Origin: Escherichia phage EJP2
Direction: 5' to 3' (one strand)
DNA: 64,000 nucleotides
Sequence record: OQ411014.1
Part shown: piece by piece, positions 12,939-61,638 of the stretch
How positions within the stretch are numbered: position 1 is the first letter of the stretch
Layout of the letters: each line of letters opens with the position of its first letter
Notes under the pieces: model-generated
What the model saw: only the letters and a program-made list of their open reading frames with translations
What the model was told of the DNA's origin: nothing
The model's database searches: none
Made by a program: the position numbers and the translations under genes

Positions 12939-14435
12939 TTATTTCTTATGAACACGGTAAACAATGTTCGGTTTAACTGCATCTTCCAACGGTACTCTGT
13001 TTGGACTATTAACAAAATCAGTTTTAGCTTTATCTGCACCAACCCACGGCTGACGACCGCCATAATCAAATATAGCCCATGATTTCTTATCGTCTGAGTA
13101 CTCCCAAAGCGTAACTGGGGTGTAATCAGTACGGTAAAAGTACTCACCATCAACTGGATTGCTTGGGAATTCAGTACCTTCACCTACAGTTCCTCTAGCT
13201 GGTGGAATCTTAGGTCTAGAGTCCGCAGAAAGAGTGATGTCGGCAGCAATACTACCTGAAGTGAATGGTACGTTGCTATGTTCATCAGGTGGAATCACCC
13301 ATGTAACACCATCATCCAGTACTTGATATAATTGTGGTTCAGCGTATAATACATAGAAGTCACCAGCGTCATTAGGTACACTTTCACCGGACTTAACGTA
13401 CGGTAAATCACAGTTCAACCATTTCTTGACATCTTTATCGTACTGATATAAAGTATATCCACTGACATCTGCTTCTTGCTCTTTAAAAAAGAAATCTCCG
13501 TCACTCGGTCTGCGAGGGAATGTGGTTCCGTACTTAACTTGGACTTCATCCCAGCTAGAATTCTCGAACTCCATCAGTACTGGATATGTTTTCTTAATGT
13601 AGAACATATTTGCTGAAGGTTTTTCAGGGAAATCATATCCACTTAAGATAACTCTTGACAGTTCCCATATATCTGATCTATCATTATATATGTGCTCATT
13701 AGTCCAGTGCATGTATGGCACTTCATCATCGGCTTGGATAATGATTTTGTTCATAATATCCATTTCGTTGTTGTAGTTACTGTTTTCACTACCACCATTA
13801 TTACCACTTGAGTTACCATTTCCGTTATTCGGATCATCTGGGTCATCTGGGAAGTTGTTATTGTCTAGGATTCCAGAATATTCAGGACTATCGGTTAGTG
13901 GTTTAACACGAAGTTTGAAAATATGGTGTTGCCATGTGACGGAGTAACCTTCGGATGTTCTAAACGCATCTTGAACGACATAGAAACGGTTCAAACCTGA
14001 ATCTTTTCCTATAACGTCAAAATCGCGTAAGTTAGGAAGTTCGATGACATCGCCTGGAATAATTTTTCTTCCCACGCGTTGCATCATTGTGTTATAATGG
14101 ATTGTAATGTCCATAGTGTTAAAGTTGAAGAAAATCCCTGGCATTTTTAAGTCAGGAGTTGCTTCTTGAATTTGGTACACTGCACTAAGTGTTATAGCTT
14201 CTAAGTTATATTCACGTTGTGCTGATTCACCGAAGATAATGTCACCGATACTAGAAATATCTAGTTGACCATCTCCGGTTTGTAGTGTACCATCATCATT
14301 AGTTGCTAATTGTTTTGGACCAACATAAGCGTACAGCCACATATCAACACCACCGATATTGTACTGTTCGGCAATGTTGCGGTCGATGAAACTATAATCA
14401 TTAGTTCGACCTTTTTTCCACATTTTGTATGCCAT
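12939..14435 (-). CDS. Hypothetical baseplate/virion protein (~499 aa)
   Basis: ORF track gives 12939..14492; the start is placed at the internal ATG (MAYKMWKK) because it has a GGAGA RBS and a late-type motif ~32 bp upstream (14467-14474). Confidence 0.5.
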   Translation of the reverse strand: MAYKMWKKGRTNDYSFIDRNIAEQYNIGGVDMWLYAYVGPKQLATNDDGTLQTGDGQLDISSIGDIIFGESAQREYNLEAITLSAVYQIQEATPDLKMPGIFFNFNTMDITIHYNTMMQRVGRKIIPGDVIELPNLRDFDVIGKDSGLNRFYVVQDAFRTSEGYSVTWQHHIFKLRVKPLTDSPEYSGILDNNNFPDDPDDPNNGNGNSSGNNGGSENSNYNNEMDIMNKIIIQADDEVPYMHWTNEHIYNDRSDIWELSRVILSGYDFPEKPSANMFYIKKTYPVLMEFENSSWDEVQVKYGTTFPRRPSDGDFFFKEQEADVSGYTLYQYDKDVKKWLNCDLPYVKSGESVPNDAGDFYVLYAEPQLYQVLDDGVTWVIPPDEHSNVPFTSGSIAADITLSADSRPKIPPARGTVGEGTEFPSNPVDGEYFYRTDYTPVTLWEYSDDKKSWAIFDYGGRQPWVGADKAKTDFVNSPNRVPLEDAVKPNIVYRVHKK

Positions 14436-14466
14436 TTTGAATCTCCAAAAAGAAATCGTATAAATG

Positions 14467-14474
14467 TATTTATT
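14467..14474 (-). promoter_or_regulatory. Late-promoter-like motif AATAAATA on minus strand (499-aa gene)
   Basis: Plus-strand TATTTATT, ~32 bp upstream of start 14435; back-to-back with the promoter at 14478. Confidence 0.35.
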
Positions 14475-14477
14475 TTT

Positions 14478-14507
14478 TTGAGACAAATGCAAAAGATGTG
14501 ATATAAT
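14478..14507 (+). promoter_or_regulatory. Sigma70-type early/middle promoter (TTGAGA-N18-TGATATAAT) for the ClpA-like gene
   Basis: -35-like TTGAGA 14478-14483, extended -10 TGATATAAT 14499-14507; one of five copies of a conserved cassette. Confidence 0.7.
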
Positions 14508-14554
14508 AGATTATGAAGCACATAAAACTACTTTTTTTTTAGGAGAGAATTATA

Positions 14555-16840
14555 ATGAGTCAAACTTTCATTCAAATCTTCACCGATACTGAAAACTTTG
14601 CACAGAGTCTTGGTCATCGTTATATGTCTATCGACCATCTTTCAGTAACCGTGCTACAAATTCCTAGCATCATTGAAGCGTTGAATGCAATGTCTCTCGA
14701 TGCGGAACAAATCCAAGAACGTGTTCACCAGTACTTGAAAAGTGCTAACATTCCAGAGATTCCACAGAGTACGATGGAAGCTATTGGTGAAGATCGTGCG
14801 GCTATGAGCATTCAAATGTCTCGTATCATGGCTGAACTAAGCAAGAAAGCTGTACTGGAACAATTGAAGACTGATGATTATACTATTGCTCCGTACTTTG
14901 TACTTTTTGAATGTTTGTCCTTCCCTAATACTGCAATTGAAGCAGTACTGGAAGAATTAGGAACAACTCGTACTGAAGTGGCTCGTTCTCTTCAGAAACA
15001 TGTTGAACAAGTTGAACCATCAGTAGAACTAACTAAAACTTTCCAAGAACCGACTAAAGAGGGTAAACGAGTGGCACAACAACCACAGTCCAAGTCTAAG
15101 GGTATTGAAGATTACACCACTAACCTGACAGAAAAAGCTCGTAATGGCAATCTTGACCCGATGATTGGTCGTACCAAGGAACTCCAGAACCTAATCGAGA
15201 TTGTTTCTCGTAAGAATAAAAAGAATGCGTGTCTGACTGGTGAACCTGGTGTTGGTAAAACTCAAATCATTGATGGTTTGGCTCAAGCAATCGCTGATGG
15301 GAATGTTCCAGAGCATTTACAAGGTATTGAGATTCTTTCTCTGAACATGGGTGCGTTTACTGCGGGTACTAAGTATCGTGGTGAGTTCGAAGAACGTGTT
15401 GATGATTTCTTGAAAGAATTGAAAACTCGTGATAACGTAATCGTATTCATTGACGAACTACATACTATCATGGGTGCAGGTTCCAACAGTTCTGGTTCTA
15501 TGGATATGAGTAATCTTATCAAACCAGCACTATCAAGTGGTGAAATCCGTGTTATCGGTGCAACTACTTACGAAGAATATCGTAAACACATTGAGAAAGA
15601 TGGTGCACTAGCACGTCGCTTCATGAAAGTTGATATTGTTGAACCTTCTTTCAGTGAAACTCGTGAAATTGTACTCGGCGTTACCAGTACTTATGAGAAG
15701 TTCCATGAAGTTTCTTTCAGTGAAGCAGCAATTGAAGCAGTACTGAACCTGTCTAACAAGTTCATGAAAAACAAGCGTTTCCCTGACAAAGCACTAGATC
15801 TTCTTGATGCAGCAGCGGCAATGAAACGTACTCGTGGTGAAGACGATAATATCGTTCAAGAATCACACATCCAAGAAGTTGTGGCACGCATTGCTAACCT
15901 GGATATTTCTGTGGTAGCATGTAACGAAAGCGAACGCATGTCTAACCTACCAAATGCACTACGTTCTCGTGTATTCGGTCAAGATGATGCAGTTGAAAAA
16001 CTGGTTGATAACGTAATGGTTGCTCGTGCAGGTCTACGTGATAGTGCGTCAGTACAGGGTGCGTTCATTTTCCAAGGGCCGTCCGGTACTGGTAAAACTG
16101 AAATCGCTAAAGCACTTGCTGATGCAATGGGTTCTGAACTAATTCGTTTCGATATGTCAGAGTTTGCTCAAGAGCATACTGTATCCAAACTAATCGGTTC
16201 CCCTCCAGGTTATGTTGGTCACGAATCCGGCAACGGTCTACTGTTAGACAAAGTAGAACAATTCCCGAACTGTGTCCTGCTTCTGGATGAAATTGAAAAG
16301 GCTCACCCTAACATTCTACTAACCTTTCTACAGGTTCTAGATGAAGGTCGTCTAACTGGCTCTCAAGGTAAAACAGTATTCTTCAATAACGTAACTGTTA
16401 TCATGACTACTAACCTAGGTGCTAAACAAGCAGAAGTTCGTGCAATCGGTGGTTCCGGTGGCGACGATGGTATGGACAAAGCACTAAAAGCGTTCCTCCG
16501 TCCAGAGTTTCTAAACCGTATCGACAGTGTTGTGAAATTCAAAGAACTATCTGCTGAGGCAATTGATTCTGTAATCACCAAGTTCATGGCTTCTCTGGAA
16601 GAAACCGTTGCACCTAAAGGTGTTACCGTGAAACTAACTACCGAAGCACGTGCATGGTTGGCTAAGAATGGTGTTCAGGTTGGTATGGGTGCACGTCCAA
16701 TGAAACGTACCATCGAAAAACACATTCGTGTCCCACTAGCTAAAGAAATGCTTTGTGGTTCTCTACAAAATGGTGGTTCAATTACGTTTGACGTGATTGA
16801 TGGAACTCTAGGTGTAAAATCCAAACGTTCTAAAAAATAA
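14555..16840 (+). CDS. ClpA-like class-I AAA+ unfoldase (761 aa)
   Basis: Clp N-domain; NBD1 Walker A GEPGVGKTQI and Walker B VIVFIDELH; NBD2 Walker A GPSGTGKTEIAKALA, Walker B VLLLDEIEKAHPNI, LIGSPPGYVGH, sensor-2 GARPMKRTIE; no ClpB-type middle domain; own sigma70-type promoter and terminator. Confidence 0.9.
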   Translation: MSQTFIQIFTDTENFAQSLGHRYMSIDHLSVTVLQIPSIIEALNAMSLDAEQIQERVHQYLKSANIPEIPQSTMEAIGEDRAAMSIQMSRIMAELSKKAVLEQLKTDDYTIAPYFVLFECLSFPNTAIEAVLEELGTTRTEVARSLQKHVEQVEPSVELTKTFQEPTKEGKRVAQQPQSKSKGIEDYTTNLTEKARNGNLDPMIGRTKELQNLIEIVSRKNKKNACLTGEPGVGKTQIIDGLAQAIADGNVPEHLQGIEILSLNMGAFTAGTKYRGEFEERVDDFLKELKTRDNVIVFIDELHTIMGAGSNSSGSMDMSNLIKPALSSGEIRVIGATTYEEYRKHIEKDGALARRFMKVDIVEPSFSETREIVLGVTSTYEKFHEVSFSEAAIEAVLNLSNKFMKNKRFPDKALDLLDAAAAMKRTRGEDDNIVQESHIQEVVARIANLDISVVACNESERMSNLPNALRSRVFGQDDAVEKLVDNVMVARAGLRDSASVQGAFIFQGPSGTGKTEIAKALADAMGSELIRFDMSEFAQEHTVSKLIGSPPGYVGHESGNGLLLDKVEQFPNCVLLLDEIEKAHPNILLTFLQVLDEGRLTGSQGKTVFFNNVTVIMTTNLGAKQAEVRAIGGSGGDDGMDKALKAFLRPEFLNRIDSVVKFKELSAEAIDSVITKFMASLEETVAPKGVTVKLTTEARAWLAKNGVQVGMGARPMKRTIEKHIRVPLAKEMLCGSLQNGGSITFDVIDGTLGVKSKRSKK

Positions 16841-36503: not shown

Positions 36504-36815
36504 TTATTTTACGTTACGTGATCCACTCAAGTAGCTTTGGACTCGCTGGACTGTAGGTATACGAATTGTCTTTCCAGCTTGAAAATCATAGATTGGGTCT
36601 TCTAGTGATGGATTTAATAATGAAAAGATGTATAATAGTCTTTCATTACCATATAGTTCAGCAGCAAGTCTCCACGGCTGACAGTCATACTTCGATGGGA
36701 TGACATAATCTACATCAGAGTCTGCTGGTAGCAGACCGCGTGGAAGATTGTAATCCAGATACCACGTTTGTTTAACTTTTGAGTACGGTGAGTACTGGCT
36801 ATATTTAGAGGCCAT
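36504..36815 (-). CDS. Hypothetical protein (103 aa)
   Basis: Small ORF in the operon; its start overlaps the stop of the upstream gene. Confidence 0.45.
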   Translation of the reverse strand: MASKYSQYSPYSKVKQTWYLDYNLPRGLLPADSDVDYVIPSKYDCQPWRLAAELYGNERLLYIFSLLNPSLEDPIYDFQAGKTIRIPTVQRVQSYLSGSRNVK

Positions 36816-37546
36816 TAGATGAACCCTCCTTTGCGTAATAGTTTACCTGTTTTATAGTCATTTAGGTTGAACTTCTTTGTCATAAAATCAGATGTTGGTT
36901 GTTCTTCCATCTGAAGAGTTACAGATACTTTCTGTGGAACCCAGACTTCATTCTCTGCGTTCATGAATCCAGTACTTCTAAGTTGTTGGAAGAAAGCACG
37001 AGTACCTTTATCGGTAAAATCGTACGTATCAGAGCTTGTATTCACTGGCACTTGTATGTATGATACGTCATTAGCTAAGTTAATGGTGTAGCTTTTAAGT
37101 ATCACAGGAATATCATTGTACATGTACCGACCATAACCACTTAGTAATAGGATTGGTGGTGGTGCACCAACGACTGCACGGTTTTCAACTTGGTTAGCTG
37201 CTGCTTTTCGACCGAAGTCCATCAACGAGACGGAACGAATGAAATGTAAGCAACTCAACAAGTACATACCTTCTGCTGCTGTATTGGCATAGAAGTCACC
37301 TTGGATGGTGAAGTTCGTGTTGGAAGTACATTTATAGTTGTTGTATGAACTATTAGAATGAACTGGTTGTTCTGTTTCATAGTTCACTTGTCTACTTTCT
37401 GAGATAATAGGGGTATAGTTCCATACCATACCGTTAGTTGAACGTAGAAACGATAGTATTGTAGGATTCTTTGTGTCACCCAAGTCTCCGTACACGTAAT
37501 CACGTGCGGCATCCTTCGGGCGTAAACGGATTCTGCGGTCAATCAT
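36815..37546 (-). CDS. Hypothetical baseplate/tail protein (~244 aa)
   Basis: Start placed at MIDRRIRL with GGAGA RBS and a late-type motif (37577-37584) ~31 bp upstream; track start is 37570. Confidence 0.5.
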   Translation of the reverse strand: MIDRRIRLRPKDAARDYVYGDLGDTKNPTILSFLRSTNGMVWNYTPIISESRQVNYETEQPVHSNSSYNNYKCTSNTNFTIQGDFYANTAAEGMYLLSCLHFIRSVSLMDFGRKAAANQVENRAVVGAPPPILLLSGYGRYMYNDIPVILKSYTINLANDVSYIQVPVNTSSDTYDFTDKGTRAFFQQLRSTGFMNAENEVWVPQKVSVTLQMEEQPTSDFMTKKFNLNDYKTGKLLRKGGFI

Positions 37547-37576
37547 TTTTATTCTCCAAAAATTTGTCATTTGATG

Positions 37577-37584
37577 TATTTATG
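37577..37584 (-). promoter_or_regulatory. Late-promoter-like motif CATAAATA on minus strand (244-aa gene)
   Basis: Plus-strand TATTTATG, ~31 bp upstream of start 37546; back-to-back with the promoter at 37586. Confidence 0.35.
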
Positions 37585-37585
37585 A

Positions 37586-37615
37586 TTGAGACAACCAGAA
37601 AAAATGTGATATAAT
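37586..37615 (+). promoter_or_regulatory. Sigma70-type early/middle promoter for the gp55/gp47/gp46 operon
   Basis: TTGAGA 37586-37591, TGATATAAT 37607-37615; same architecture as 14478-14507. Confidence 0.7.
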
Positions 37616-37668
37616 AGAGTGGTAGGACACGGATAGTCCTCTGAGATGTAAAACATGGAGACAATATA

Positions 37669-38532
37669 ATGATAAACACTAAGCCGAAGCGTAAGAAGTA
37701 TTTGAATAACGCTGACTTACTAAGAGAGATACACATAAGTAAAATGTCGTATTGCTATCTGCTAGATCGTGCTTATAGTATGTATGACTACATAGTTTTT
37801 GATGAATCCGAAATCACTGAAGAAATCTTAGAAAAGGCTTCAGCGGCTCGAATCAAACGACTAAACAATGAAGCGATTGACAAGATTCGCGTAAAAGATG
37901 GACTATCAGCTAAGAAAGCGAAAGAACAAGCTGAAAGTTTAGGTGTAGTATTGAGTACTGTACCACAAGATGAAGTAGTGATTCGTGTAATCACCGATGA
38001 ACATATCCCTTTCGATGCTTCCAACAAGAAAGGTGAGAAGTTCCGAGTAAACTTTGAACCATTCAAACACTACATCGTTGATGATTGTGGAGAGATAGTT
38101 GAAGTTGGTCGGTCACATTGGCGTGGTGATTTAGAAAACGGTGAGTTCTCAATGGACCACGGTCGAATTACAAATGAACTCGGTAAAATGTTTATCAAAC
38201 TTGCTGAACAGATTTCACACAAGACTAACTATAGACGTTATACGTACTTGGATGAAATGATGGGCGATGCTCGTGTTCAACTAGTCAAGAATGCTCTTCT
38301 CTTCAAAGAAAGTATTCTGTACAAAAAAGTGAAACCTGCTGTGCAGTTGAATCCCTTTTCATATTATACATCGTTTGTTAACAACGCGTTTCGTTCAGTA
38401 CTGAATGCTGAAAAGAATGTACGTAACATCCGTGATGATTTGTTGGAATTGAATGGCTTTAACCCAAGTCATACTCGTCAACTAGAAATCGAAATTCAAA
38501 TGCAAGAAAGGAAAAACAATGGCACTATTTGA
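37669..38532 (+). CDS. 55: Late-transcription sigma factor, gp55-like (287 aa, with a ~100-aa insertion relative to T4 gp55)
   Basis: N-terminal TKPK..Y.NN.DLL motif and C-terminal region (LAEQIS..NYRRYTYLDEMMGDA...NPFSYYTSFVNNAFRSVLNAEKN) align to T4 gp55; sigma70-type promoter at 37586-37615. Confidence 0.75.
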   Translation: MINTKPKRKKYLNNADLLREIHISKMSYCYLLDRAYSMYDYIVFDESEITEEILEKASAARIKRLNNEAIDKIRVKDGLSAKKAKEQAESLGVVLSTVPQDEVVIRVITDEHIPFDASNKKGEKFRVNFEPFKHYIVDDCGEIVEVGRSHWRGDLENGEFSMDHGRITNELGKMFIKLAEQISHKTNYRRYTYLDEMMGDARVQLVKNALLFKESILYKKVKPAVQLNPFSYYTSFVNNAFRSVLNAEKNVRNIRDDLLELNGFNPSHTRQLEIEIQMQERKNNGTI

Positions 38533-39553
38533 TAAAGCAGTTACTTTTACAGATATTCATCTTGGTCTAAAGAACAACAGTAAAGAACACAACGAAGATT
38601 GTTTGAACTTCGTGAAGTTCATGATTGCTGAAGCGAAGAAACAAAATATACGTACTTGCATCTTTATGGGAGATTTCTTCCATAATAGAAGCAACGTAAA
38701 CATAAGTACTTTGAACTATGGTTTGGAAGTTATGAAACTTCTAAACGAGAACTTCGATAAAGTATATTTTCTTGTCGGGAACCACGATATGTACCACAAG
38801 AACAAACGTGACATTACCAGTATCAATATGGCACAGGCGTTCGAGAACATACATTTCGTGAATGAGATGGAAACTATTGATGATTGCACTTTCATTCCTT
38901 TTATGATTGATGACGAATACACAAAGTTACCATCTCTACGAAGCAAATACGTTTTTGGTCACTTAGAATTACCTGGATACCTCTTGAATAAAATGGTCGA
39001 AATGCCTAACCACGGTAAAGAGACTCAAGAGTCATTCAATGGTTGTGAATACGTCTTTAGTGGACACTTCCATAAACGACAATCTAAAATTACACCAAGC
39101 GGTACTAAGGTACTGTACACTGGAAACTGTTTTCCACATGACTTTTCTGATACATGGGATGATGCACGTGGTATTATGATTCTTGAACACGGTAAAGACC
39201 CATATTTTGTTGCTTGGGATAAAGCACCGAAGTATAGAACCTTTACTTTGTCTGAACTTCTGTCTGACCCATCATATTACGTCCAAGATGATGTAATTGC
39301 TAAAGTTCAAATTGATATTCCTGTTACTATGGATGAGATTAGTTACATTCGTGAACTATTCAGTACTATTCATAATATCAGAGAGTTCAACGTAGTAACG
39401 AACAAGAAAGCAGTGATGGATGATGTTGAGAAGATGGTGGATTCATCTGAAGGGACTGAAACAGTCGATGAGATTGTACTACGTCAAATCAGTGAAATTG
39501 ATTCACCAATATTCGACAAGAATCTACTAATGCAAATTTACACATCACTATAA
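38519..39553 (+). CDS. 47: Recombination/repair nuclease subunit, gp47-like (Mre11/SbcD family)
   Basis: Calcineurin-like phosphoesterase motifs (TDIHLG, GDFFHNR, GNHDMY, GHxH) and T4 gp47-like size; followed by the Rad50-like gene as in T4. Confidence 0.8.
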   Translation: MALFDKAVTFTDIHLGLKNNSKEHNEDCLNFVKFMIAEAKKQNIRTCIFMGDFFHNRSNVNISTLNYGLEVMKLLNENFDKVYFLVGNHDMYHKNKRDITSINMAQAFENIHFVNEMETIDDCTFIPFMIDDEYTKLPSLRSKYVFGHLELPGYLLNKMVEMPNHGKETQESFNGCEYVFSGHFHKRQSKITPSGTKVLYTGNCFPHDFSDTWDDARGIMILEHGKDPYFVAWDKAPKYRTFTLSELLSDPSYYVQDDVIAKVQIDIPVTMDEISYIRELFSTIHNIREFNVVTNKKAVMDDVEKMVDSSEGTETVDEIVLRQISEIDSPIFDKNLLMQIYTSL

Positions 39554-39568
39554 TCAAGGAGAGCACGG

Positions 39569-41713
39569 ATGCTTACAATCAAGAATATTACAATGAGAAA
39601 CTTTTTCTCCTTTGGGAATGCACCACAGACTGTAGTACTGGATAGTACTGATATATCCTTAGTTCTGGGTCAGAACAATGATGTACTTCTCGATGGAGCA
39701 GACAATTCCGGTCGTCGTAATGGGGTGGGTAAATCTGCCCTCATTCAAGGCATCGTATATGGTCTGTATGGTAAAAGTATCGGTAATGATATCAAGATTT
39801 CTAACTTGGTGAATAAAATCAACACTAAGAACTGTGAAGTATTCTTAGAGTTCAGTAAAGATGGTGTTGATTATCGAGTTGAGCGTGGGCGTAGCCCAAC
39901 GTATTTCAACTTCATCACCATGAATCAGGATAAAGCTGATGATGAATCTCGTGGTGAGAAGAAAGATACCCAAGAAGATCTAATTGAAGTTCTTGGTATC
40001 TCGCAACAATTGTTTGAACACATTGTAGTACTGAATGCTAACGTTGAGCCGTTCTTGTCATTGCCTGTTATCAAACAGCGTGATATGATTGAAGAACTTC
40101 TTGGTATTACTCAACTAACCGAGAAAGCTGAACTACTAAAGGACATGCATAAAGAATCGAAACGTCAAGCTGAACAAGAAAAGTTCAAGATTGAAACTAT
40201 TACTGCTTCGAACGAGCGTATCCAGCAGAGTATTTCTATTCTCCAGGATCAAGCCGCTGCGTTTGAGAAAGCTAAGTCTGAAAAGATTGATAGTATCCAA
40301 TCTAAGCTGGTGGATTTTGAGGGAGTTGATTTTGCTAACTTATTTGAAGTTGCGACTAAGAATGAGATGGCTAAACAATGTAATGCAGACAGAGCAGTTC
40401 TTGAAGGTCGAGTGAATACACTTGCTCAGAAATATCAAGACTACGATGCACAGTTAGTTGCAAATAAAGAGTTGATTCAACAAAGCATCCAAGAATTGAA
40501 CACTATTGACATTGTTCAGGAATTGAGTAACCACAATGAATTATCTTCGTGGTTAGAATTGGAGAAGATTCTAAAAGAATCATTGAGTACTAAGAAATTC
40601 AAGGAACAACAGATCAGTACTGCTGAACGTAACTTGAATATGCTAAAAAGTACTTTAGCAAAAGAAGAAAGTTCACTCCAAGATGTTCTTGATAACAAAT
40701 GTTCTCTATGTAAGGGTAATCTAGACCATGATGAAAATCATAAAACTCTAAAAGAGAAAGTACTAAGTTCGATTCAATCACTAAAGGAAGAGATTTCAGT
40801 TGTGGAATTGCAGATTAGTGCAACCGTAGCAGAAATTGATGCTTTGGAGATATTTGACTTGCCAGCTAAACCAGTTACAGTGTATCCTACATTGTCTGGT
40901 GCACAACTTCATGAACATAAACTAGCTGAATTAGTAAAACAGTTAGATGAAGTACAGGTCAATATCTATGAAGAAGAGTTACAGAATTCATATGCTAAGT
41001 TAGCAGAGACACCAGTACTGGAAGTACTAGATTGGTATAGTGTTCAAGAAGTTACTGAATTGAATTTCATGTTCGATGGACTAAAGTCTGATTTAGAACG
41101 AGAAATGAAGTCTGAGAATCACTTCGTATCTCAAATTGAGACACTAAAAACTACATCTCTACAAGCTGTATCGTATGATGAGTTCAATGAGTTCGATAAG
41201 TTGGCTAATCACCAAGAATTCTTGGCTAAATTGCTAATCAATAAGGACTCTTATGTTCGTAAACGTATCATTGAACAGAATATCTCGTTCTTGAATACAC
41301 GTTTACAGTACTATATCGATGCTGTTGGTTCATCTCATCAGGTAGTATTCATGAATGACCTAAGTGTTGATATTACATTGAATGACCAGACCTATGACTT
41401 CAAACAATTGTCTCGTGGTGAGCGTACTAGGGTTAACATTGCGTTATCCTTAGCATTCCGTGATACCTATGAGTCTCTATACCAAGCAATTAACCTCATT
41501 TGTATTGATGAGATGATTGATGTTGGTCTTGATAGTTCTGGTGTAATGAAAACGTGGACAATATTCCAAGATCTTGCAGCTATTCGTAACAAGAACGTAT
41601 TTGTCATCTCTCATAGAGAGGAATTACTCAGTAAAACTGACAAGATACTCAAGATTACGAAAGAAGCTGGATTTAGTTCAGTTGCTTATACAACATTGGA
41701 TGATTTTTTCTAA
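39569..41713 (+). CDS. 46: Recombination ATPase subunit, gp46-like (Rad50/SbcC family)
   Basis: N-terminal Walker A (GVGKSALIQGIVYGLYGK), long coiled-coil middle, C-terminal ABC signature/D-loop region (QLSRGERTRVNIALSLAF...ICIDEM). Confidence 0.8.
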   Translation: MLTIKNITMRNFFSFGNAPQTVVLDSTDISLVLGQNNDVLLDGADNSGRRNGVGKSALIQGIVYGLYGKSIGNDIKISNLVNKINTKNCEVFLEFSKDGVDYRVERGRSPTYFNFITMNQDKADDESRGEKKDTQEDLIEVLGISQQLFEHIVVLNANVEPFLSLPVIKQRDMIEELLGITQLTEKAELLKDMHKESKRQAEQEKFKIETITASNERIQQSISILQDQAAAFEKAKSEKIDSIQSKLVDFEGVDFANLFEVATKNEMAKQCNADRAVLEGRVNTLAQKYQDYDAQLVANKELIQQSIQELNTIDIVQELSNHNELSSWLELEKILKESLSTKKFKEQQISTAERNLNMLKSTLAKEESSLQDVLDNKCSLCKGNLDHDENHKTLKEKVLSSIQSLKEEISVVELQISATVAEIDALEIFDLPAKPVTVYPTLSGAQLHEHKLAELVKQLDEVQVNIYEEELQNSYAKLAETPVLEVLDWYSVQEVTELNFMFDGLKSDLEREMKSENHFVSQIETLKTTSLQAVSYDEFNEFDKLANHQEFLAKLLINKDSYVRKRIIEQNISFLNTRLQYYIDAVGSSHQVVFMNDLSVDITLNDQTYDFKQLSRGERTRVNIALSLAFRDTYESLYQAINLICIDEMIDVGLDSSGVMKTWTIFQDLAAIRNKNVFVISHREELLSKTDKILKITKEAGFSSVAYTTLDDFF

Positions 41714-41742: not shown

Positions 41743-42218
41743 ATTAATCTCATATCTAACTTACCTTCCTTGATGAGTGTCCTCGCTTGGTTGGCTCTTT
41801 TCTTAACATTAGTCTCTGGTTCAGTACCTAATGAACTCAGTACTTCACATTGCTGCTTTGCTGGTAGTGCTTTAAACTTCTTCACATCCACTGTAAGAGC
41901 CGTATGGTGAATAACTTGCTCTTCTGGTGGTATATTGTTATGATGCTCTAGATAGTCTGCTAGATTGCGTAGAACTTCGTATAATGGCTTATCAGTCAAG
42001 TGCCTTACACACCTATTAAATGAGTTCTGTACGCGTCCCTCCCAGCCGTTAACCTCATTCTGTAGTACTCCCCTACAGTGCTGGTTATCTTGGTGGTAGT
42101 GGTCTAATACGGGCTTTGTGATGGGTATTTGAAGGATAGGATCAATACCACCTTGTGCCTTTAGTAGTTCCTTACGATATTTTGCTGCATCGTCAGGGTT
42201 TTTAAGTCTTCTTTTCAT
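41727..42218 (-). CDS. Endonuclease VII-like His-Me finger nuclease (163 aa)
   Basis: LDHYHQDNQHCRGVLQNEVNGWEG...FNR resembles the T4 endo VII core HLDHDHELNGPKAGKVRGLLCNLCNAAEG..FNR. Confidence 0.5.
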   Translation of the reverse strand: MKRRLKNPDDAAKYRKELLKAQGGIDPILQIPITKPVLDHYHQDNQHCRGVLQNEVNGWEGRVQNSFNRCVRHLTDKPLYEVLRNLADYLEHHNNIPPEEQVIHHTALTVDVKKFKALPAKQQCEVLSSLGTEPETNVKKRANQARTLIKEGKLDMRLIKKGA

Positions 42219-42263
42219 ATCTACACCTTTTGGACAATGATTCTAGTTACTTTATTTAGTTTA

Positions 42264-42464
42264 AGTACTATCATTGTCATCCACCAGCATTCAGTACTTC
42301 TATTATGCATGTTCTGTGTATACAGGAATCACAAAAGTACTAATGACCTTTCTGAAATCCTTGCAGTACTAAGGATGTCCAAAACTCTTGGAGAATGTAC
42401 TTAGTTGCAGTACATAGAGAAGAGTACTATGCTCACGTAATGAAATTATTTTCGAAAAAGTACT
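42264..42464. repeat. Cluster of six AGTACT(A) palindromic hexamers in non-coding DNA
   Basis: AGTACT at 42264, 42293, 42336, 42365, 42423 and 42459; five are AGTACTA; between the endoVII-like start and the promoter at 42471. Confidence 0.6.
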
Positions 42465-42470
42465 AGAAAA

Positions 42471-42500
42471 ATGAGATGCAAACATAAAATGTGATATAAT
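42471..42500 (+). promoter_or_regulatory. Sigma70-type promoter firing rightward into the ORF-free locus
   Basis: ATGAGA 42471-42476, TGATATAAT 42492-42500; no ORF with RBS downstream for ~700 bp. Confidence 0.65.
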
Positions 42501-43040
42501 ATAAGTACAAGTTCATAAGGTCAGTTTTTACTGATACAGATTAAACCCAATTCACTCGAAAATGTAGAGGATGGATGAGTAGACTTATGACTACGTAGTG
42601 CAAAAGAAACCCGTTAGGAGATGGCATAGTTTGTACCACCCACGGCAATGTGGCACTTTAAATGAACGCGATAAGCAGACAGACGTTCACTAGATAGACA
42701 TATAAGGCTACCTTACCACACTTGCTAAGGGAGTTCAGTTCAGAACTTGTTTTGAGCTTGAACAGCATTAAGATTCGATTGTATGGATTTTAATGTATGC
42801 GTACTAAGACTACGACCGTTGCACATGACCGTGATAGAGAGAAACAGAGCAACCCGCTTTCGTTCTGACTTGTTCAGAAATTCACGATACAATAATTCCG
42901 ATGCTATCAGCGTCAAGCAATATTTCAGATCCTTAATTGGGTCTTTTTTATTGTCTTCATTCCCCTGCGGGGGGATGAAATTGCCTCAACAAATCTCGTC
43001 AAGTATTAAAGTATTAATTAGTTCTTAATAATTAAATTAT

Positions 43041-43105
43041 TAAATGAATTGAGATTCATTAGAGTGAAACGAAGTGAACGATAAATGAATTGAAGATTCT
43101 TAGAC
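43041..43105. repeat. AT-rich direct repeats (iteron-like) in the ORF-free locus
   Basis: TAAATGAATTGAGATTCATTAGAG (43041-43064) and TAAATGAATTGAAGATTCTTAGAC (43082-43105), a third AATGAATT near 43164 and tandem AGTATTAA x2 at ~42998-43013, within a very AT-rich stretch 42990-43180. Confidence 0.55.
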
Positions 43106-43179
43106 AATCGAAGATTGGCTAATCAAATACTTTCTCCTAAAGAATGATTCAATAATAATTCTTAATGAATTTTAAATAC

Positions 43180-43205
43180 AAAAAAAACCAGCAACAATGT
43201 GCTGG
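43180..43205 (-). terminator. Minus-strand terminator after the 83-aa gene
   Basis: CCAGCA-ACAATG-TGCTGG hairpin preceded on plus by AAAAAAAA (U-run on the minus-strand RNA). Confidence 0.6.
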
Positions 43206-43457
43206 CTATTGATTCATTTTCTTCATTCTTTTGTTATACGACTTCACCATTAAATCCCTTGTCTGTACTGGCATATTCAGTAATGACTCATAGGAAGTGT
43301 TCTCTATAGCAACAGCAGCATCCATCAATGACACCTGAATGTCATTGACATTAAACTCCATATCACTTAGAATCTCTTTTATTTCTTCCGGTTCACTAAT
43401 GAGAAGTCTAGTCCGAAAAAATGGGATGGGTCGTATTTTAGTCCAGTCAATTCCCAC
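43206..43457 (-). CDS. Small hypothetical protein; start uncertain (83 aa from first ATG, ~51 aa from MEFNV)
   Basis: The longest ORF overlaps the upstream 288-aa gene by 79 nt in a different frame; the internal start at 43361 removes the overlap. Confidence 0.3.
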   Translation of the reverse strand: MGIDWTKIRPIPFFRTRLLISEPEEIKEILSDMEFNVNDIQVSLMDAAVAIENTSYESLLNMPVQTRDLMVKSYNKRMKKMNQ

Positions 43458-44245
43458 TGATGATTACAGTTACTACATTCAACATCCATAGTATGACTGA
43501 TACCTACATCAAATACACTATCAGACTTTTCACTAATGATTTTGAGATCATTCTTGTTCAAAGTACCAAGCCATTCAGAAATAAATTCTGGTTCAGTTAC
43601 TTCTTCATCATTAGGAGTGACTATCTTCGCAATACTACTGCAAATCATATCATAGTTCAGTTGAGTCATTTTCTCAAAAATGTCACTGAAAATTTCCATT
43701 CTTTCTTTCTCTTCCAAATCAGCACTCATATCAATAACACGAGAACGACTTTGTTGAGCAAACATACGCTCACCAAAAGCAGAATGCTCTTCCCATGTAT
43801 GTGGTCTAAAGTATACTGTTAGTCCATTTTCCATTAGTACTACAGGCTCTTCAGTAAATGAAGTAGTAGTATTGAGTAGATAGTTCAAATCACGACTAAA
43901 TCCACCCACATGTTCACACTCTGGACATGTAACATTGATATCATATGATTCATCTTTAGTAGCTAATTTAATAGCAATAAGTAGTTGCTCTACGTCGTTT
44001 ACATAGAGTTTAGAAGCATCAAGTACTGAAGGGACACAGTTCTCAATTACTTTAGCAATGGCATCACCACCAATTAGTGCATCAGCAGTATTAAGTAGAA
44101 TTTCATCACGTGCAGAACGAGCACATACACCACACTTAGTATTACTTACTACACCTTCAGGGTACTTGATTACATCGTTTGAAACTAGTTTAGTGAACAG
44201 TACTTCAATTTTACTGTACTGTGACAAAGGGTTCATCTTGCTCAT
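43379..44245 (-). CDS. Hypothetical Cys-rich protein (288 aa) with three CxxC motifs, possible hub or assembly protein
   Basis: ORF diverging from the tape-measure-like gene; CGVC, CPEC, CSNC motifs. Confidence 0.5.
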   Translation of the reverse strand: MSKMNPLSQYSKIEVLFTKLVSNDVIKYPEGVVSNTKCGVCARSARDEILLNTADALIGGDAIAKVIENCVPSVLDASKLYVNDVEQLLIAIKLATKDESYDINVTCPECEHVGGFSRDLNYLLNTTTSFTEEPVVLMENGLTVYFRPHTWEEHSAFGERMFAQQSRSRVIDMSADLEEKERMEIFSDIFEKMTQLNYDMICSSIAKIVTPNDEEVTEPEFISEWLGTLNKNDLKIISEKSDSVFDVGISHTMDVECSNCNHQWELTGLKYDPSHFFGLDFSLVNRKK

Positions 44246-44258
44246 ATATACTCCATAT

Positions 44259-44266
44259 CATAAATA
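44259..44266 (+). promoter_or_regulatory. Late-promoter-like motif CATAAATA (tape-measure-like gene)
   Basis: 7/8 match, 33 bp upstream of ATG 44299. Confidence 0.35.
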
Positions 44267-44298
44267 GTTTTAATATAATTATTTATTAAGGATAGGAT

Positions 44299-56347: not shown

Positions 56348-56860
56348 ATGCTTAATCTGAAAAATTTCAAAAAGTACAAACCGGAAGGTATCATTGACGG
56401 TTTTATGTATCTTATATCAGAAGATGGGTTAGATTGGTATGAGGCACGTGAAATGTTCCAAGAAGATACAGTGAAGATTTTGTATGAGAATGACGGCACT
56501 ATTGTATGTGCCGACTACACGGCACTATTCATGCCCCCATTAGATTGTAGTATTGCTGAAATATACTATGACGGAAACTTGAATGATTTGTATGGGATGG
56601 TTTTCGATGGTGAAAAAGTAGTACCATACGATGAACCAAACTCTGAACGGATTGAGCGTTTAAAATCTGAGCAAAAGAATCTTAAAGTATCTGCAATCAA
56701 CGAACTGAATAACTTAAAAATGGCAATCGACCTTGATGTAGCAACCGAAGATGAAAAGAAACTCTTCCCAGTACTGAAGAGTTACATCATGAAACTATCC
56801 ACTTTCACTGATGATGATTTCACTGATAAACTGTTTGAATTTCCAGTTAAACCAGTTTAA
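56348..56860 (+). CDS. Tail fibre assembly chaperone, Tfa-like (170 aa)
   Basis: Immediately downstream of the fibre gene; C-terminal region (AINELNNLKMAIDLDVATEDEKKLFPVLKSYIMKL...FPVKPV) resembles the conserved Tfa C-terminus. Confidence 0.55.
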   Translation: MLNLKNFKKYKPEGIIDGFMYLISEDGLDWYEAREMFQEDTVKILYENDGTIVCADYTALFMPPLDCSIAEIYYDGNLNDLYGMVFDGEKVVPYDEPNSERIERLKSEQKNLKVSAINELNNLKMAIDLDVATEDEKKLFPVLKSYIMKLSTFTDDDFTDKLFEFPVKPV

Positions 56861-56869
56861 CAAAAAAAT

Positions 56870-56899
56870 ATGAGACAAATCGAAAACGTCTGATATAAT
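56870..56899 (+). promoter_or_regulatory. Sigma70-type promoter upstream of the 99-aa gene and DNA polymerase
   Basis: ATGAGA 56870-56875, TGATATAAT 56891-56899; followed by a 7-bp inverted repeat (GTCATCT...AGATGAC) around 56903-56927. Confidence 0.65.
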
Positions 56900-56956
56900 A
56901 GAGTCATCTGACATGGTGTTAGATGACTTTTCTAAAATCCAAATGGAGAAAACATA

Positions 56957-57256
56957 ATGGCTAAGAAACTCGAAAACAAAGTTGAACTACACGATCTAAA
57001 CGATGAACAACGTAAACGTCTAGGTGACGGCTTGACAAATGCTGTAGTTCAGCTAACATACCATAAGAGTGTAAAAGAGTCTTACAAAGAGTTTATCAAC
57101 AGCCTAGCTGATGAACTTGGTATTGATGCTGGAACTATTCGTGCAGCAGCAGCCCGTATGGAAAAAGGTGATTTCTTCGAGAAGGTTCGTAAGCAAGATG
57201 AAATCGAAACTATGCTACAAATCACTGGTAATCTACCAGCAGAAGATGACGAGTAA
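56957..57256 (+). CDS. Hypothetical early protein (99 aa)
   Basis: ORF downstream of sigma70-type promoter 56870-56899; GGAGAAAA RBS; terminator follows. Confidence 0.5.
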   Translation: MAKKLENKVELHDLNDEQRKRLGDGLTNAVVQLTYHKSVKESYKEFINSLADELGIDAGTIRAAAARMEKGDFFEKVRKQDEIETMLQITGNLPAEDDE

Positions 57257-57338: not shown

Positions 57339-60300
57339 ATGTACGTAGATGGATATATGGAACGTAAGCGTGGTTCAGAAGTTCTTCACGTAGCTGAACG
57401 TGTCAATGGTAAACGTGTACTACGAGAACTAGATCCAGTGTACGAGTACTATGTTGAGTCACCGTACGGTACACAAAAGACAATTCACGGAACTATGGCT
57501 GAGAAGTTTGAGTTCAGTACATATCGTGATATGAAAGCATCCCTAGAGCGTCACGCCGGATGCAAAATCTTTGAATCTGACTGTAACGTCACCTTCAAAA
57601 CACTAGCTAAACGTTATATGGGTAAAGCATCACCAGACCTGAACGTATTGTTCTTCGATATCGAGACAGACTTTCATGAAAAGTTTGGTTATGCACCAAC
57701 ACATGATCCATTCAACCGTGTAACTGCAATTTCTCTGTATCAAAGTTGGACTGGTTGTGATTATGTTCTAACACTACCACCTGCAAGTATGAGTCTTATC
57801 CAGGCACAAGAAATTGTGAATGAACTCAACGCAGAGACTAATGATGAAAACAGTAAAGTAATTCTTTACACTGACGAAAAAGAGATGTTCATCGAATTCT
57901 TCTCTCTAATGCAGGACGCAGATGTATTGTCCGGCTGGAACAGTGAGTTCTATGATATTCCTTACATGATCAACCGTACTAAGAAGCTATTCAATGAAGC
58001 AATGTTGGCTCATTGGTGTCTTTGGAACAAAAAACCTGTTTCCCGTGAAGCTGATAACTTTGGTAAAGTTGTTGTTACATATGACCTAGTAGGTCGTGTA
58101 CACCTTGACTACTTAGCACTTTACAAGAAACACGCCGGACAAGTTGAACAGTCCTATCGTCTAGATGATATTGCTGAGAAAGTAACTGGCGAAAACAAAG
58201 TTGCATACGATGGTTCTTTGAACAAACTATACAACGAAGATTACAAAATGTTCTTACGATATTCTAAGCAGGATAGTATCCTACTGAAGAAAATTGATGA
58301 GAAGATGGACTTCATCAGTCTACATAACCGACTAGCTCATAAAGAATGTGTACTAATCAGTACTACAATGGGTTCGGTAGCACTAATCGACACATCTATC
58401 ATCAACAAAGCACACAAACGTGGTGAAGTAGTTTTTGATAAGAAGAATCAGGACGAAGTTGAAGTTGATGATCGTTATGATTTTATGGGTGACGATAATG
58501 ATGATGGTGAAGAAGAGAAAGTAGCAGCAAAAGCAGCGGGTGCATGGGTACAAGATCCAGTACTGGGTTTAGTTGACTTCTTAGGATGTACTGACTTTAA
58601 CAGTCTATATCCAACAGTTCTTCGTTCACTAGGTATGAGTACTGAATGTATTATCGGGCAATTGCGTCATGATTATACTGAAGCACACCTTGAGAAACGT
58701 GTTGCAGACCAACGTGCTAAATCTAAATCCAAAGCATTTGAACCGGATTGGACAGCAGCATGGCATGGTTTGTTTGCTAGTATTGAGTTCACAATGGTTC
58801 GTGAGAAATCACAAAGCCTAATCAATGTTGATTTGGAAGATGGTAGTACTTTCCAAGCAACTGGTGAACAACTATATGAACTAATCTTTGCTGAAGATAG
58901 TACTATTGTTCTTTCCGCTAACGGAACACTATTTGATAAAACCAAAAATGGTGTAATCCCAGAGATCCTTACTGAATGGTACTCTGAGCGTAAATGTCAG
59001 CAGAAGATGGTCATCGATTATAAACACATGTACAGTGACGGTTGGGAATTGCCTTCATCTTCTCTTGACAAGATTGAAGCTGCTATGCAAAACTACACAG
59101 CAGGTACAGAATTTTACCGTACTAACTTACATGATGATGACCCAGTATATCTCCTACGTATTGCACTAACTAATGCAAACTATGAAGATGTAGCTAAACT
59201 TGTGGTTGAGAACGGTCTAGTACTGAAAGATGGTCGTCTATTCTGTAAGAAAGAAGATAAAGACTACTTCAAGAAACAAAGTGCGTTCTGGAAACAGAAC
59301 CAGCAGATTCGTAAGATTCTTCTGAACTCCCTCTATGGTGCACTACTAAACAAAGGTTCTCGTTTCTTTGATAAGCGTCTAGGTCAGTCTGTAACCCTAA
59401 CAGGTCGTAGTATGACTAAACACATGGCATCTCGTATCAATGAGATTGTTACTGGTGAATACAACCACGAAGGTGGATGTGTAATCTATGGTGATACCGA
59501 CTCCGTATATTTCAGTGTTGCTCACTATATGAAAGAACAAGGTTTTGAATTCAACCTAAACCGTACTGAAGTAGTTGATTTGTATGTCAAGATTGGTGAT
59601 GAAATGGGTGAAAACTTCTATGAATTCATGAATGATAGCTTCAACACTGGTATTGAGAAAGGTAAATTGGTTGGTGCAGATCTTGAGATGGTTGGTTCAC
59701 GCGGACTATTCCTGAAGAAGAAGCGTTATGCTATTCTGAAGTACTGGGAAGATGGTTTCCGTAAAGATGAAAATGGTGAAGTTGGTGAAATCAAAGCGAT
59801 GGGATTGGAAATCAAACGTTCCGATACACCTAAGTACATCCAGAACTTCCTACAAAGTACTTTGATTGCACTACTTGTTGGTGAATCCGAAGATGAACTT
59901 CGTGCTCGTGTTCGTGAATTCAAATGTACATTCAAGGATAAACCATCACATGAGAAAGGTGCTCCACGTACAGTGAAGAAGTACACTCATCACGAGGAAG
60001 AGTATCAGAAAACTGGTAAATGTTCCGTATCACACGTTCTAGCTGCAATTCAGTGGAACAAACTATGTGGAATTTACGAAGATAAAACTGTACCAGAAGC
60101 AACTGACGGTACTAAAGTAATCGTCTGTGATCTAAAGCCAAACCCTACAGGTATTCTGAAAATTGGTTATCCAATTGACTGTGTTGAATATCTACCTGAA
60201 TGGTTCCTTGACTTACCATTTGATGATGATAAAATGGAACAATCAATTCTAACCAAGAAACTAAACAACATCTTTGGTATTCTTGATATGGATATTGGTA

Positions 60301-60350
60301 TCAATGAGAAGAGTACACTAGCACTTGACAGTGGTTTCTTCGAGTGGTAA
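57339..60350 (+). CDS. 43: Family-B DNA polymerase, gp43-like (1003 aa)
   Basis: Exo I motif FFDIETD; polymerase motif C YGDTDSVYF; motif A-like region; size typical of T4-type polymerase; RBS AAGGAGA. Confidence 0.9.
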   Translation: MYVDGYMERKRGSEVLHVAERVNGKRVLRELDPVYEYYVESPYGTQKTIHGTMAEKFEFSTYRDMKASLERHAGCKIFESDCNVTFKTLAKRYMGKASPDLNVLFFDIETDFHEKFGYAPTHDPFNRVTAISLYQSWTGCDYVLTLPPASMSLIQAQEIVNELNAETNDENSKVILYTDEKEMFIEFFSLMQDADVLSGWNSEFYDIPYMINRTKKLFNEAMLAHWCLWNKKPVSREADNFGKVVVTYDLVGRVHLDYLALYKKHAGQVEQSYRLDDIAEKVTGENKVAYDGSLNKLYNEDYKMFLRYSKQDSILLKKIDEKMDFISLHNRLAHKECVLISTTMGSVALIDTSIINKAHKRGEVVFDKKNQDEVEVDDRYDFMGDDNDDGEEEKVAAKAAGAWVQDPVLGLVDFLGCTDFNSLYPTVLRSLGMSTECIIGQLRHDYTEAHLEKRVADQRAKSKSKAFEPDWTAAWHGLFASIEFTMVREKSQSLINVDLEDGSTFQATGEQLYELIFAEDSTIVLSANGTLFDKTKNGVIPEILTEWYSERKCQQKMVIDYKHMYSDGWELPSSSLDKIEAAMQNYTAGTEFYRTNLHDDDPVYLLRIALTNANYEDVAKLVVENGLVLKDGRLFCKKEDKDYFKKQSAFWKQNQQIRKILLNSLYGALLNKGSRFFDKRLGQSVTLTGRSMTKHMASRINEIVTGEYNHEGGCVIYGDTDSVYFSVAHYMKEQGFEFNLNRTEVVDLYVKIGDEMGENFYEFMNDSFNTGIEKGKLVGADLEMVGSRGLFLKKKRYAILKYWEDGFRKDENGEVGEIKAMGLEIKRSDTPKYIQNFLQSTLIALLVGESEDELRARVREFKCTFKDKPSHEKGAPRTVKKYTHHEEEYQKTGKCSVSHVLAAIQWNKLCGIYEDKTVPEATDGTKVIVCDLKPNPTGILKIGYPIDCVEYLPEWFLDLPFDDDKMEQSILTKKLNNIFGILDMDIGINEKSTLALDSGFFEW

Positions 60351-60824: not shown

Positions 60825-60854
60825 ATGAGACGTATCTATTTTCTGTGATATAAT
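60825..60854 (+). promoter_or_regulatory. Sigma70-type promoter upstream of the putative clamp gene
   Basis: ATGAGA 60825-60830, TGATATAAT 60846-60854. Confidence 0.65.
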
Positions 60855-60906: not shown

Positions 60907-61638
60907 ATGGATCTACGCAATGTACTACGTGACCTAGTAAACACCACTTCCGGTATCGATTTCACCTGTATCGCAGTTTCTAATGAAGACCGTGGTGAAG
61001 GTCAACGTGTGTATATGGAATCTTATACAGAAGACAAAACCCTAGTAATGCGTGCTTTCACTAAAGAGAACGTACCAGACTTCGAAGGTCGTTTTGGTCT
61101 AACCAACCTCGGAACTCTTCAAGGTCTAATGAACCTCAAAACCTTCAGTACTGAAGGAACTACTATCACAGTAAACCAGAAAGCTGGTAAGGTTCAAAGT
61201 CTAGGTTTTGCTTCTGAAGATGCAAGTACTGTATTCGTTGTACAGTCCGAGAAATTCATTCCAGCACAACCACGCTTCACTGAGAAAGATTATGCAGTAA
61301 CAGTTGTCCCAACTGCTGCTAAAGTTCAAGAACTAAAGAGCTTCTCTGGTGTGTTCAAGGCAATCAGTGCACTAGCTACTCCATACACTGAAGACGGCAA
61401 TATGTTCTTCCACGTTGGTGAAAAGAACAAGAATAACCACACTGGTGCGATTCAGTTCTCTAAAGCTGAAGGTGATTTGAAACTACAATACGGTTATGCA
61501 ATTGACCGCATTCTTCAAACCCTAGGTCGTGTATCCAATGCAGAATCTGCTTCACTGTCTGTAAGTGCAACTGGTATTCTGAAAGTTACAATTGATACTG
61601 GTCTTGTTGTTTATCAGTTCTTTGTACACGGTTGCTAA
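60907..61638 (+). CDS. Putative sliding clamp, gp45-like (243 aa)
   Basis: Size, acidic character, position after the polymerase, and weak N-terminal resemblance to T4 gp45; own sigma70-type promoter 60825-60854. Identity tentative. Confidence 0.35.
   Translation: MDLRNVLRDLVNTTSGIDFTCIAVSNEDRGEGQRVYMESYTEDKTLVMRAFTKENVPDFEGRFGLTNLGTLQGLMNLKTFSTEGTTITVNQKAGKVQSLGFASEDASTVFVVQSEKFIPAQPRFTEKDYAVTVVPTAAKVQELKSFSGVFKAISALATPYTEDGNMFFHVGEKNKNNHTGAIQFSKAEGDLKLQYGYAIDRILQTLGRVSNAESASLSVSATGILKVTIDTGLVVYQFFVHGC

Follow-up and report, generated by a model that had tools for sequence, protein, structure and literature searches.

A second promoter class of Rak2-like jumbo myoviruses recurs at five sites in a 64-kb phage segment and is most likely read by a phage-encoded sigma factor

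The closest described counterpart of the promoters reported here comes from phage CBB, for which three promoter sets have been predicted (PMC5259590). The first comprises 18 canonical sites (TTGACA-N17-TATAAT) that carry UP elements and cluster in the presumed early region, and the third comprises 35 ATAAATA late sites (PMC5259590). The second set, termed class ii here, consists of 18 'divergent RpoD-like' sites ('Promoter 1') in which TGAAACG replaces TTGACA, and was also reported in GAP32 (PMC5259590). Its individual sequences, given in Table S6 of that study, read TGAAAC/TGGAAC-N14-TGnTATAAT and lie mostly upstream of DNA-synthesis genes, with one upstream of a gp55-like gene; some are not in the replication region, one of these being in the early region (PMC5259590). 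The class is a MEME prediction whose bidirectional geometry, RNA gene and link to a phage sigma factor were not discussed by its authors (PMC5259590). A literature search found no transcript 5'-end or RNA-seq data for enterobacterial Rak2-like phages, RNA-seq among these jumbo phages being confined to the distant PA5oct, and no promoter analysis in the papers on RaK2, Sharanji and fEgEco12. In phage T4, middle promoters employ MotA and AsiA, which remodel the use of host sigma70, and the MotA box, (a/t)(a/t)(a/t)TGCTT(t/c)A, is centred at -30 and lies 11-13 bp from the -10 element.

The window, by which we mean the whole stretch of 64,000 nucleotides that was analysed, belongs to this group of phages. 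A 4-kb probe around the first promoter site matched solely jumbo myoviruses of the Rak2/121Q/GAP32/CBB group by BLAST, the nearest relative being Erwinia phage Hallingskeid at 77% identity, and the gene order is that of Hallingskeid throughout the 64 kb, in reverse orientation. It comprises tail fibre, sheath, ClpA-like ATPase, a 3344-aa virion protein, baseplate genes and late sigma, followed by an SbcD/SbcC-like nuclease, endonuclease VII, baseplate hub, portal, protease, major head protein, tail fibre and DNA polymerase. The early region of the genome lies outside the window. The 3344-aa ORF had suggested an N4-like phage, which was ruled out by the BLAST matches of this region to Rak2/121Q-like jumbo phages.

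Searching the window for TGAGA-N15-TGATATAATAGA with at most two mismatches returned exactly five matches, all on the plus strand, at positions 14479, 37587, 42472, 56871 and 60826, compared with a chance expectation of 0.02 in dinucleotide-preserving shuffles. The site at 42472 has ATA where the others have AGA; the short form of the motif is TGAGA-N15-TGATATAAT(A/G)A, and the 12-mer TGATATAATAGA is confined to these five sites in the window. At each of them TGATATAAT places TG at -15/-14 ahead of a TATAAT-like -10, the hallmark of an extended -10 promoter, TGAGAC and TATAAT are separated by 17 bp, and the more general pattern TGRRAY-N14-TGNTATAAT fits without mismatch (5/5). In the five-way alignment the blocks common to all copies are TGAGA, TGATATAAT and the A three bases after TGATATAAT; elsewhere there are scattered single invariant columns, and spacers and flanks differ, giving about 20 shared positions. 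An A5-7 tract occupies the UP-element position at the three non-divergent sites (P42471, P56870 and P60825, named by first nucleotide). The exact window motif occurs in three stretches of IMG/VR, once in each, and no contig there carries several copies. An earlier note on this DNA had described a conserved promoter element in five copies and of sigma70 type. The number of plus-strand matches bears out the former and the TGnTATAAT extended -10 with its upstream hexamer a sigma70-family reading, and conservation extends beyond the -10 hexamer, to TGAGA and the downstream A. The N18 spacing it gave is correct as the distance from (A/T)TGAGA to TATAAT; taken literally as N18 before TGATATAAT, it has zero matches. 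Like E. coli extended -10 (TGn) sigma70 promoters, the sites combine TG at -15/-14 with a perfect TATAAT; unlike them, they add a further conserved element, at a constant distance of 17 bp, that varies by phage lineage.

The genes behind the sites include the late sigma, an SbcCD-like nuclease, a family-B polymerase and a ClpA-like ATPase. P14478 (14478..14510, +) reads TTGAGAC, with TGAGAC at 14479-14484, a 17-bp spacer, TG at 14499-14500 and TATAAT at 14502-14507 followed by AGA; its predicted +1 is at about 14514, ahead of a ClpA-like AAA+ gene (14555-16840, 761 aa). P37586 (37586..37618, +) likewise reads TTGAGAC, with TG at 37607-37608, TATAAT at 37610-37615 and a predicted +1 at about 37622. 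It serves a gp55-like late sigma gene (37669-38532; phrog_12791, E = 5.9e-148) and then SbcD/SbcC-like (gp47/46-like) genes (38519-41713). P42471 (42471..42503, +; ATGAGAT, TG at 42492-42493, TATAAT at 42495-42500, predicted +1 at about 42507) has no downstream ORF and is followed by a structured RNA. P56870 (56870..56902, +; ATGAGAC, TG at 56891-56892, TATAAT at 56894-56899, predicted +1 at about 56906) serves a 99-aa gene (56957-57256), the family-B DNA polymerase (57339-60350) and a 138-aa gene. P60825 (60825..60857, +; ATGAGAC, TG at 60846-60847, TATAAT at 60849-60854, predicted +1 at about 60861) serves a 243-aa gene (60907-61638) and then a phosphoesterase (61689-62309). Two local features of these surroundings deserve mention. 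Between the tail-fibre gene and P56870 lies a 170-aa gene (56348-56860, +) that has no counterpart in Hallingskeid, the sole difference in gene content from that phage seen directly beside any of the sites. Between the endonuclease VII start and P42471, GTAC occurs nine times in 302 nt (42219-42520) compared with 2.4 expected from the window average; this stretch is absent from 7t3-type phages, in which endonuclease VII abuts the promoter.

These five functional-looking sites are a new instance of the promoter class already predicted for this phage group. They share with the CBB sites an identical 29-nt layout, TGRRAY-N14-TGnTATAAT, and the same targets: in CBB, Porf_244 precedes the gp55-like sigma gene, Porf_235 the ClpA-like gene, and others precede DNA-synthesis genes. 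CBB also has both back-to-back pairs with ATAAATA late sites (Porf_234/235 and Porf_243/244) and the overlap of promoter and terminator before the polymerase operon (Porf_262/Torf261). The window differs in its hexamer, which has G rather than A at position 4, and in its extended -10, which is TGA where CBB mostly has TGG. Orthologous positions are kept in Hallingskeid at all five sites. Scanning its syntenic 67 kb for the pattern recovered sites before the ClpA-like gene (TGGGAT-N14-TGATATAAT), the late sigma, the non-coding block and the 243-aa gene, together with an extra site upstream of an exonuclease gene that we take to lie beyond the right edge of the window; at the site of the 99-aa/polymerase operon CG replaces TG, and the spacer sequences differ from those of the window. 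Similarly, 17 of 17 IMG/VR loci with gp55 orthologues keep the order of start codon, RBS, GTATTTAT, TGRRAY, N14 and TGnTATAAT. Since the class precedes replication and recombination genes as well as the late sigma gene, and canonical TTGACA sites mark the early region of CBB, 'middle' would be a better description of its timing than 'early'. Relative to the CBB prediction, what is new here is this middle assignment, the conserved bidirectional geometry and a probable reader in the phage sigma; an unexpected by-product was the RNA behind P42471, which was previously uncatalogued and has no match in Rfam. For these poorly studied 350-kb phages, the promoters provide a testable transcription map that separates middle from late blocks.

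At two of the sites the class-ii promoter stands back to back with a leftward late promoter. One late core, ATAAATA at 14467-14473 (-), has its RBS, GGAGA, at 14442-14446 and serves the gene at 12939-14435 (-); the other, at 37577-37583 (-) with its RBS at 37553-37557, serves the gene at 36815-37546 (-). Both leftward genes encode virion structural proteins, and both cores lie 30-31 nt upstream of the ATG with GGAGA in between. The window has 20 copies of ATAAATA, of which 19 are intergenic and stand 14-66 nt upstream of a start on the same strand; these 19 include every full TATAAATA copy, six in all. This placement, together with the gp55 homologue in the window, identifies the element as a T4-type late promoter. 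T4 late promoters (TATAAATA, gp55/gp33/gp45) resemble the minus-strand partners in having NATAAATA upstream of virion genes; they differ in their first T, which is not conserved here, the two divergent units having A or C instead. The earlier note had recognised a minus-strand late-type motif, which is real, and had it overlapping the region just upstream of the plus-strand -35, where it is in fact adjacent, at 5 bp from TGAGAC in the P14478 unit and 3 bp in the P37586 unit. Its back-to-back late and early units likewise stand as divergent pairs with T4-type late promoters, the word 'early' being better read as 'middle'.

The geometry of these pairs is closely kept. At the gp55 and ClpA loci, each of the 19 divergent junctions examined has 3-5 bp separating the late core from TGRRAY, and the predicted opposing starts, from T4-like and sigma70-like start spacing, are 52-54 bp apart; a twentieth junction, between endonuclease VII and the RNA in phage 7t3, has a gap of 6 bp and predicted starts 56 bp apart. 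Seen from the rightward promoter, the late core consequently spans roughly -47 to -39, the position of an UP element, and the rightward -35 and -10 fall at about -18 to -46 of the leftward late promoter. As RNA polymerase usually covers -55 to +20, two complexes with starts this close could not coexist; the footprints would overlap and each divergent unit would have one occupant at a time, an arrangement that supports the mutually exclusive occupancy raised as a possibility in the earlier note. Such compact bidirectional junctions could enforce the switch from middle to late transcription.

Two of the leaders have structures of their own. A terminator-like hairpin (56902..56933, +) starts 2 nt after the -10 of P56870 and consists of 14 bp followed by UUUUCU (-17 kcal/mol). 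RNA that begins at the predicted +1, inside the 5' arm, keeps only 8-9 pairs, displaced from the U run. Judged by these folds, the hairpin would stop transcripts arriving from upstream late genes, and RNA initiated at the promoter would start within the 5' arm. Overlap of promoter and terminator is also seen in Hallingskeid and CBB, with different stem sequences, and in several paralogues of the RNA; in CBB, Torf261 starts 4 nt after Porf_262 (PMC5259590). Placing a promoter inside a terminator would be a compact way of insulating a middle operon from the late operon upstream. The second structure is a hairpin in the leader of the gp55-like mRNA (37624..37640, +; AGGAC-ACGGATA-GTCCT), which begins 2-3 nt after the predicted +1. 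Its stem of 5-6 bp is paired in 96% of alignment cells compared with 32-56% in slid controls, three pairs show compensatory changes, and 14 distinct sequences share the loop A-[AC]-GGAT-N without exception. This hairpin could be a 5' stabiliser or a translational operator.

The RNA behind P42471 has a structured core at 42507..43004 (+) and conserved sequence to about 43186, and is at least 500 nt, and probably about 700 nt, in length. The block from 42534 to 43370 has 84% DNA identity to Hallingskeid, compared with 77% for the ClpA gene, and has matches in 61 phage records that span the clade and extend to a Xanthomonas phage, mostly without annotation. An alignment of 23 distinct copies supports 77 pairs in 17 helices, 42 of them with compensatory changes; 96.8% of cells are paired compared with 37-45% in slid controls, and the covariation score is 0.45 compared with 0.07, and none of 500 shuffles attained it. 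A long-range helix, in which GAUG within the invariant GAUGAG pairs with CGUC within CUCGUC, encloses about 440 nt and thereby makes the terminator-like hairpin at 42927-42952 internal to the RNA. Fold energy alone did not discriminate between the two strands (-160 against -151); we assigned the RNA to the strand of the promoter because of invariant G.U pairs and the orientation of the promoter.

Several other identities for this cargo were rejected. Searches for a tRNA, tmRNA or Rfam family were all negative, Rfam 15 having no match in the window, in 42200-43500 at E <= 1, or in the chromosomal copies. A protein-coding function is contradicted by annotated opposite-strand ORFs that are tiny and inconsistent, by copy lengths that vary and by strong covariation; coding sequence is present only at the right end, as a small gene (43206-43376, -) with its own terminator. 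Homology to PA5oct ncRNA001/002/004 was also discarded (nhmmer E = 0.04 and 1, with alignments that are not credible). The small gene, which is unlisted, is a homologue of GAP32_242 and 121Q_595 downstream of the baseplate hub gene, and the bidirectional hairpin at its end (43186-43207) is a good minus-strand terminator. The nearest analogues of the RNA are the ornate GOLLD and ROOL RNAs, likewise 500-800 nt in size, rich in covarying helices, borne by phages or prophages and of no known function. It matches neither Rfam model in sequence or structure, however, and differs in residing in Enterobacterales phages and islands, in several copies per jumbo genome and behind a dedicated promoter type. 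Large, highly structured bacterial RNAs are rare and most are of unknown role, and this one is experimentally tractable, with a defined promoter, cultivable phages (121Q, CBB and GAP32) and chromosomal homologues.

The RNA is present in multiple copies, with 4-5 BLAST places per phage record and two exact-motif matches in many whole-genome contigs. In 121Q, a paralogue and its class-ii promoter start 35 nt after the stop codon of the RpoD-like sigma gene (90,267 onward), and another copy lies in the early region of CBB; no copy was found in the Klebsiella RaK2/K64-1 group. Elsewhere in the CBB early region, a 1.2-kb stretch free of annotated genes (329,406-330,630) with three TTGACA-type promoter-like sites is not homologous to the RNA. 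Profile searches recovered full-length homologues on Citrobacter amalonaticus and Serratia chromosomes, in another Serratia assembly and in an Enterobacteriaceae metagenome-assembled genome; BLAST with the Citrobacter copy found it in 2 of 5426 complete E. coli genomes. At four loci, two chromosomal and two metagenomic, the RNA lies between a large serine recombinase and a CI-like repressor; one locus lies beside ParB-like genes, and the E. coli copy is in an island adjoining ffs. Plasmid copies were not found, and the 19-mer AAACCCAATTCACTCGAAA had no match in IMG/VR. Matches of a 21-mer in Litorimonas and Pandoraea were set aside, being unsupported by the profile and in line with the roughly two chance matches that we estimate. 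Every copy for which upstream sequence was available (21 IMG/VR loci, the window, four phage records and eight chromosomal or metagenomic loci) has a class-ii motif before it, which argues that promoter and RNA travel as one unit; the motif was found nowhere else in 75 kb of the chromosomal and metagenomic RNA loci. In the prophage copies a pair of class-ii motifs stands in tandem, some 64 bp apart, immediately behind the large serine recombinase gene.

We consider it likely that these promoters form the middle set of Rak2/121Q/GAP32/CBB-like jumbo myoviruses and that the phage RpoD-like sigma is their most probable reader. The class would be defined by TGRRAY at the -35 position, a 17-bp spacer, the extended -10 TGnTATAAT and a conserved A(G/T)A, and would be used by host core RNA polymerase with a sigma70-family factor. 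That factor would most likely be the phage's own early-encoded RpoD-like sigma, in which region 2, the part reading the -10, resembles sigma70 but region 4.2, the part reading the -35, does not; host sigma70 would probably give some basal use through the extended -10. In the cascade we propose, early promoters would lead to the phage sigma, which would switch on the ClpA-like ATPase, the gp55-like late sigma with the gp47/46-like nuclease, the DNA polymerase operon, the 243-aa/phosphoesterase operon and the large structured RNA from class-ii promoters. gp55 would then act at NATAAATA late promoters, and at two boundaries of gene blocks the class-ii promoter would face away from the late promoter of leftward virion genes.

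The identity of the reader is suggested by position 4 of the hexamer. It is G at all five sites of the window and all six of Hallingskeid, and also in 121Q, 7t3 and Kae01; it is A at all 18 CBB sites, and also in GAP32, BF and related contigs. Promoters within one whole-genome contig agree at this position, and such a concerted, genome-wide switch points to a changed reader that is encoded by the phage. The RpoD-like sigma (CBB_513) is restricted to this clade. Its homologues were found in 70 phage records; the phages all belong to Enterobacterales or Xanthomonas hosts, and ten of the records are from Klebsiella phages, RaK2 and K64-1 included. They fall into identity groups of 75-100% and 32-45%, and this split coincides with the A and G lineages, whereas the gp55-like protein keeps 67-80% identity to that of the window across all 17 loci. 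When aligned with E. coli sigma70, the phage sigma conserves region 2.3/2.4 (FSTYAT..IRQ), which fits the invariant TATAAT, and has a region 4.2 helix unrelated to RERIRQIE. That helix is SKATLSRRY in the A lineage and SHSTIHRRY, SRTSLHRCY or SRSSIHRKY in the G lineage, with an S/H difference between the two. The CBB sigma gene itself lies in the early region, behind TTGACA-type sites. Hexamer switches that are lineage-wide and track a fast-diverging phage sigma favour that sigma as the reader, and the two lineages would constitute a natural specificity-swap experiment; from the sequences compared, the co-variation appears to reflect essentially one evolutionary split.

A stronger form of the same reading holds that TGRRAY is the cognate promoter of the clade's sigma, in a cascade from host sigma70 to phage sigma to gp55, and that promoter and RNA additionally make up a portable module. 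We advance this tentatively, at somewhat less than even chances. If true, expression of the chromosomal copies might depend on a jumbo phage providing the sigma. Prophages and islands of Citrobacter, Serratia and E. coli, where a jumbo-phage sigma is not evident, nonetheless have the motif ahead of their RNA gene, and this also speaks for another explanation, in which these are plain early promoters and unmodified host sigma70 holoenzyme reads the extended -10 together with (A/T)TGAGA at 18 bp and A-tract, UP-like sequence upstream. The extended -10, TGnTATAAT, is perfect, and promoters of the TGn type need little contact at the -35. TTGAGA/ATGAGA matches TTGACA at 4-5 of 6 positions (3-5 of 6 for xTGRRA, with the one-base shift and an 18-bp spacer, across clade variants), and A5-7 tracts directly precede the three non-divergent sites. 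We nevertheless regard this explanation as rather unlikely. CBB has a separate canonical class with TTGACA and UP elements that is concentrated in its early region; the C of the consensus -35 is found in none of the 18 CBB class-ii sites; and the C/T that follows the shifted hexamer is conserved, though sigma70 would not read that base. Furthermore, position 4 switches in concert across genomes whose hosts have an essentially invariant sigma70, and the genes served are those of the T4 middle set.

The resemblance to T4 middle promoters raises a further explanation, namely that a phage activator binds TGRRAY and an AsiA-like protein remodels region 4 of host sigma70. The place in the cascade is the same, with replication and recombination genes and gene 55 among the targets, and both systems combine a sigma70-type -10 with an upstream element that is not of sigma70 type. 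The element is placed differently, however: TGAGAC, like TGRRAY generally, occupies -35 to -30 with 17 bp to TATAAT, as opposed to the TGCTT of a MotA box centred at -30. In addition, the CBB authors report a sigma factor and an HTH regulator only (PMC5259590). Appropriation of the host sigma is thus improbable, and a complete sigma factor is a likelier reader than an activator acting with a remodelled host sigma.

The earlier note had also described the two divergent units as near-identical, with similar sequence over roughly 75 bp, and had named the repeated cassettes as possible substrates for recombination. The similarity is real, in that 14436-14512 and 37547-37620 align with 57 of 74 positions identical (77%; z = 9 compared with shuffles), but its basis is modular, and the recombination idea finds no support. 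That the sites are a recently duplicated or mobile cassette, chiefly serving recombination and rearrangement, is hardly credible despite five direct copies with their shared positions and the 77% identity of the divergent units, as spacers and flanks differ between copies, every site has its orthologous position and own spacer in Hallingskeid, which makes the copies older than the divergence of these phages, the genes keep one order throughout the 64 kb and at each of the five sites, with no rearrangement found at any of them, and recombination between direct repeats flanking essential genes would remove those genes. Outside the promoter, the left halves of the two units share 29 of 40 positions, and another late leader (44245-44286) shares 30 of 40 with the first unit, as good a match as the second. 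The likeness over 75 bp is one of shared module order (RBS, late core, -35-like element and extended -10) and not of duplication.
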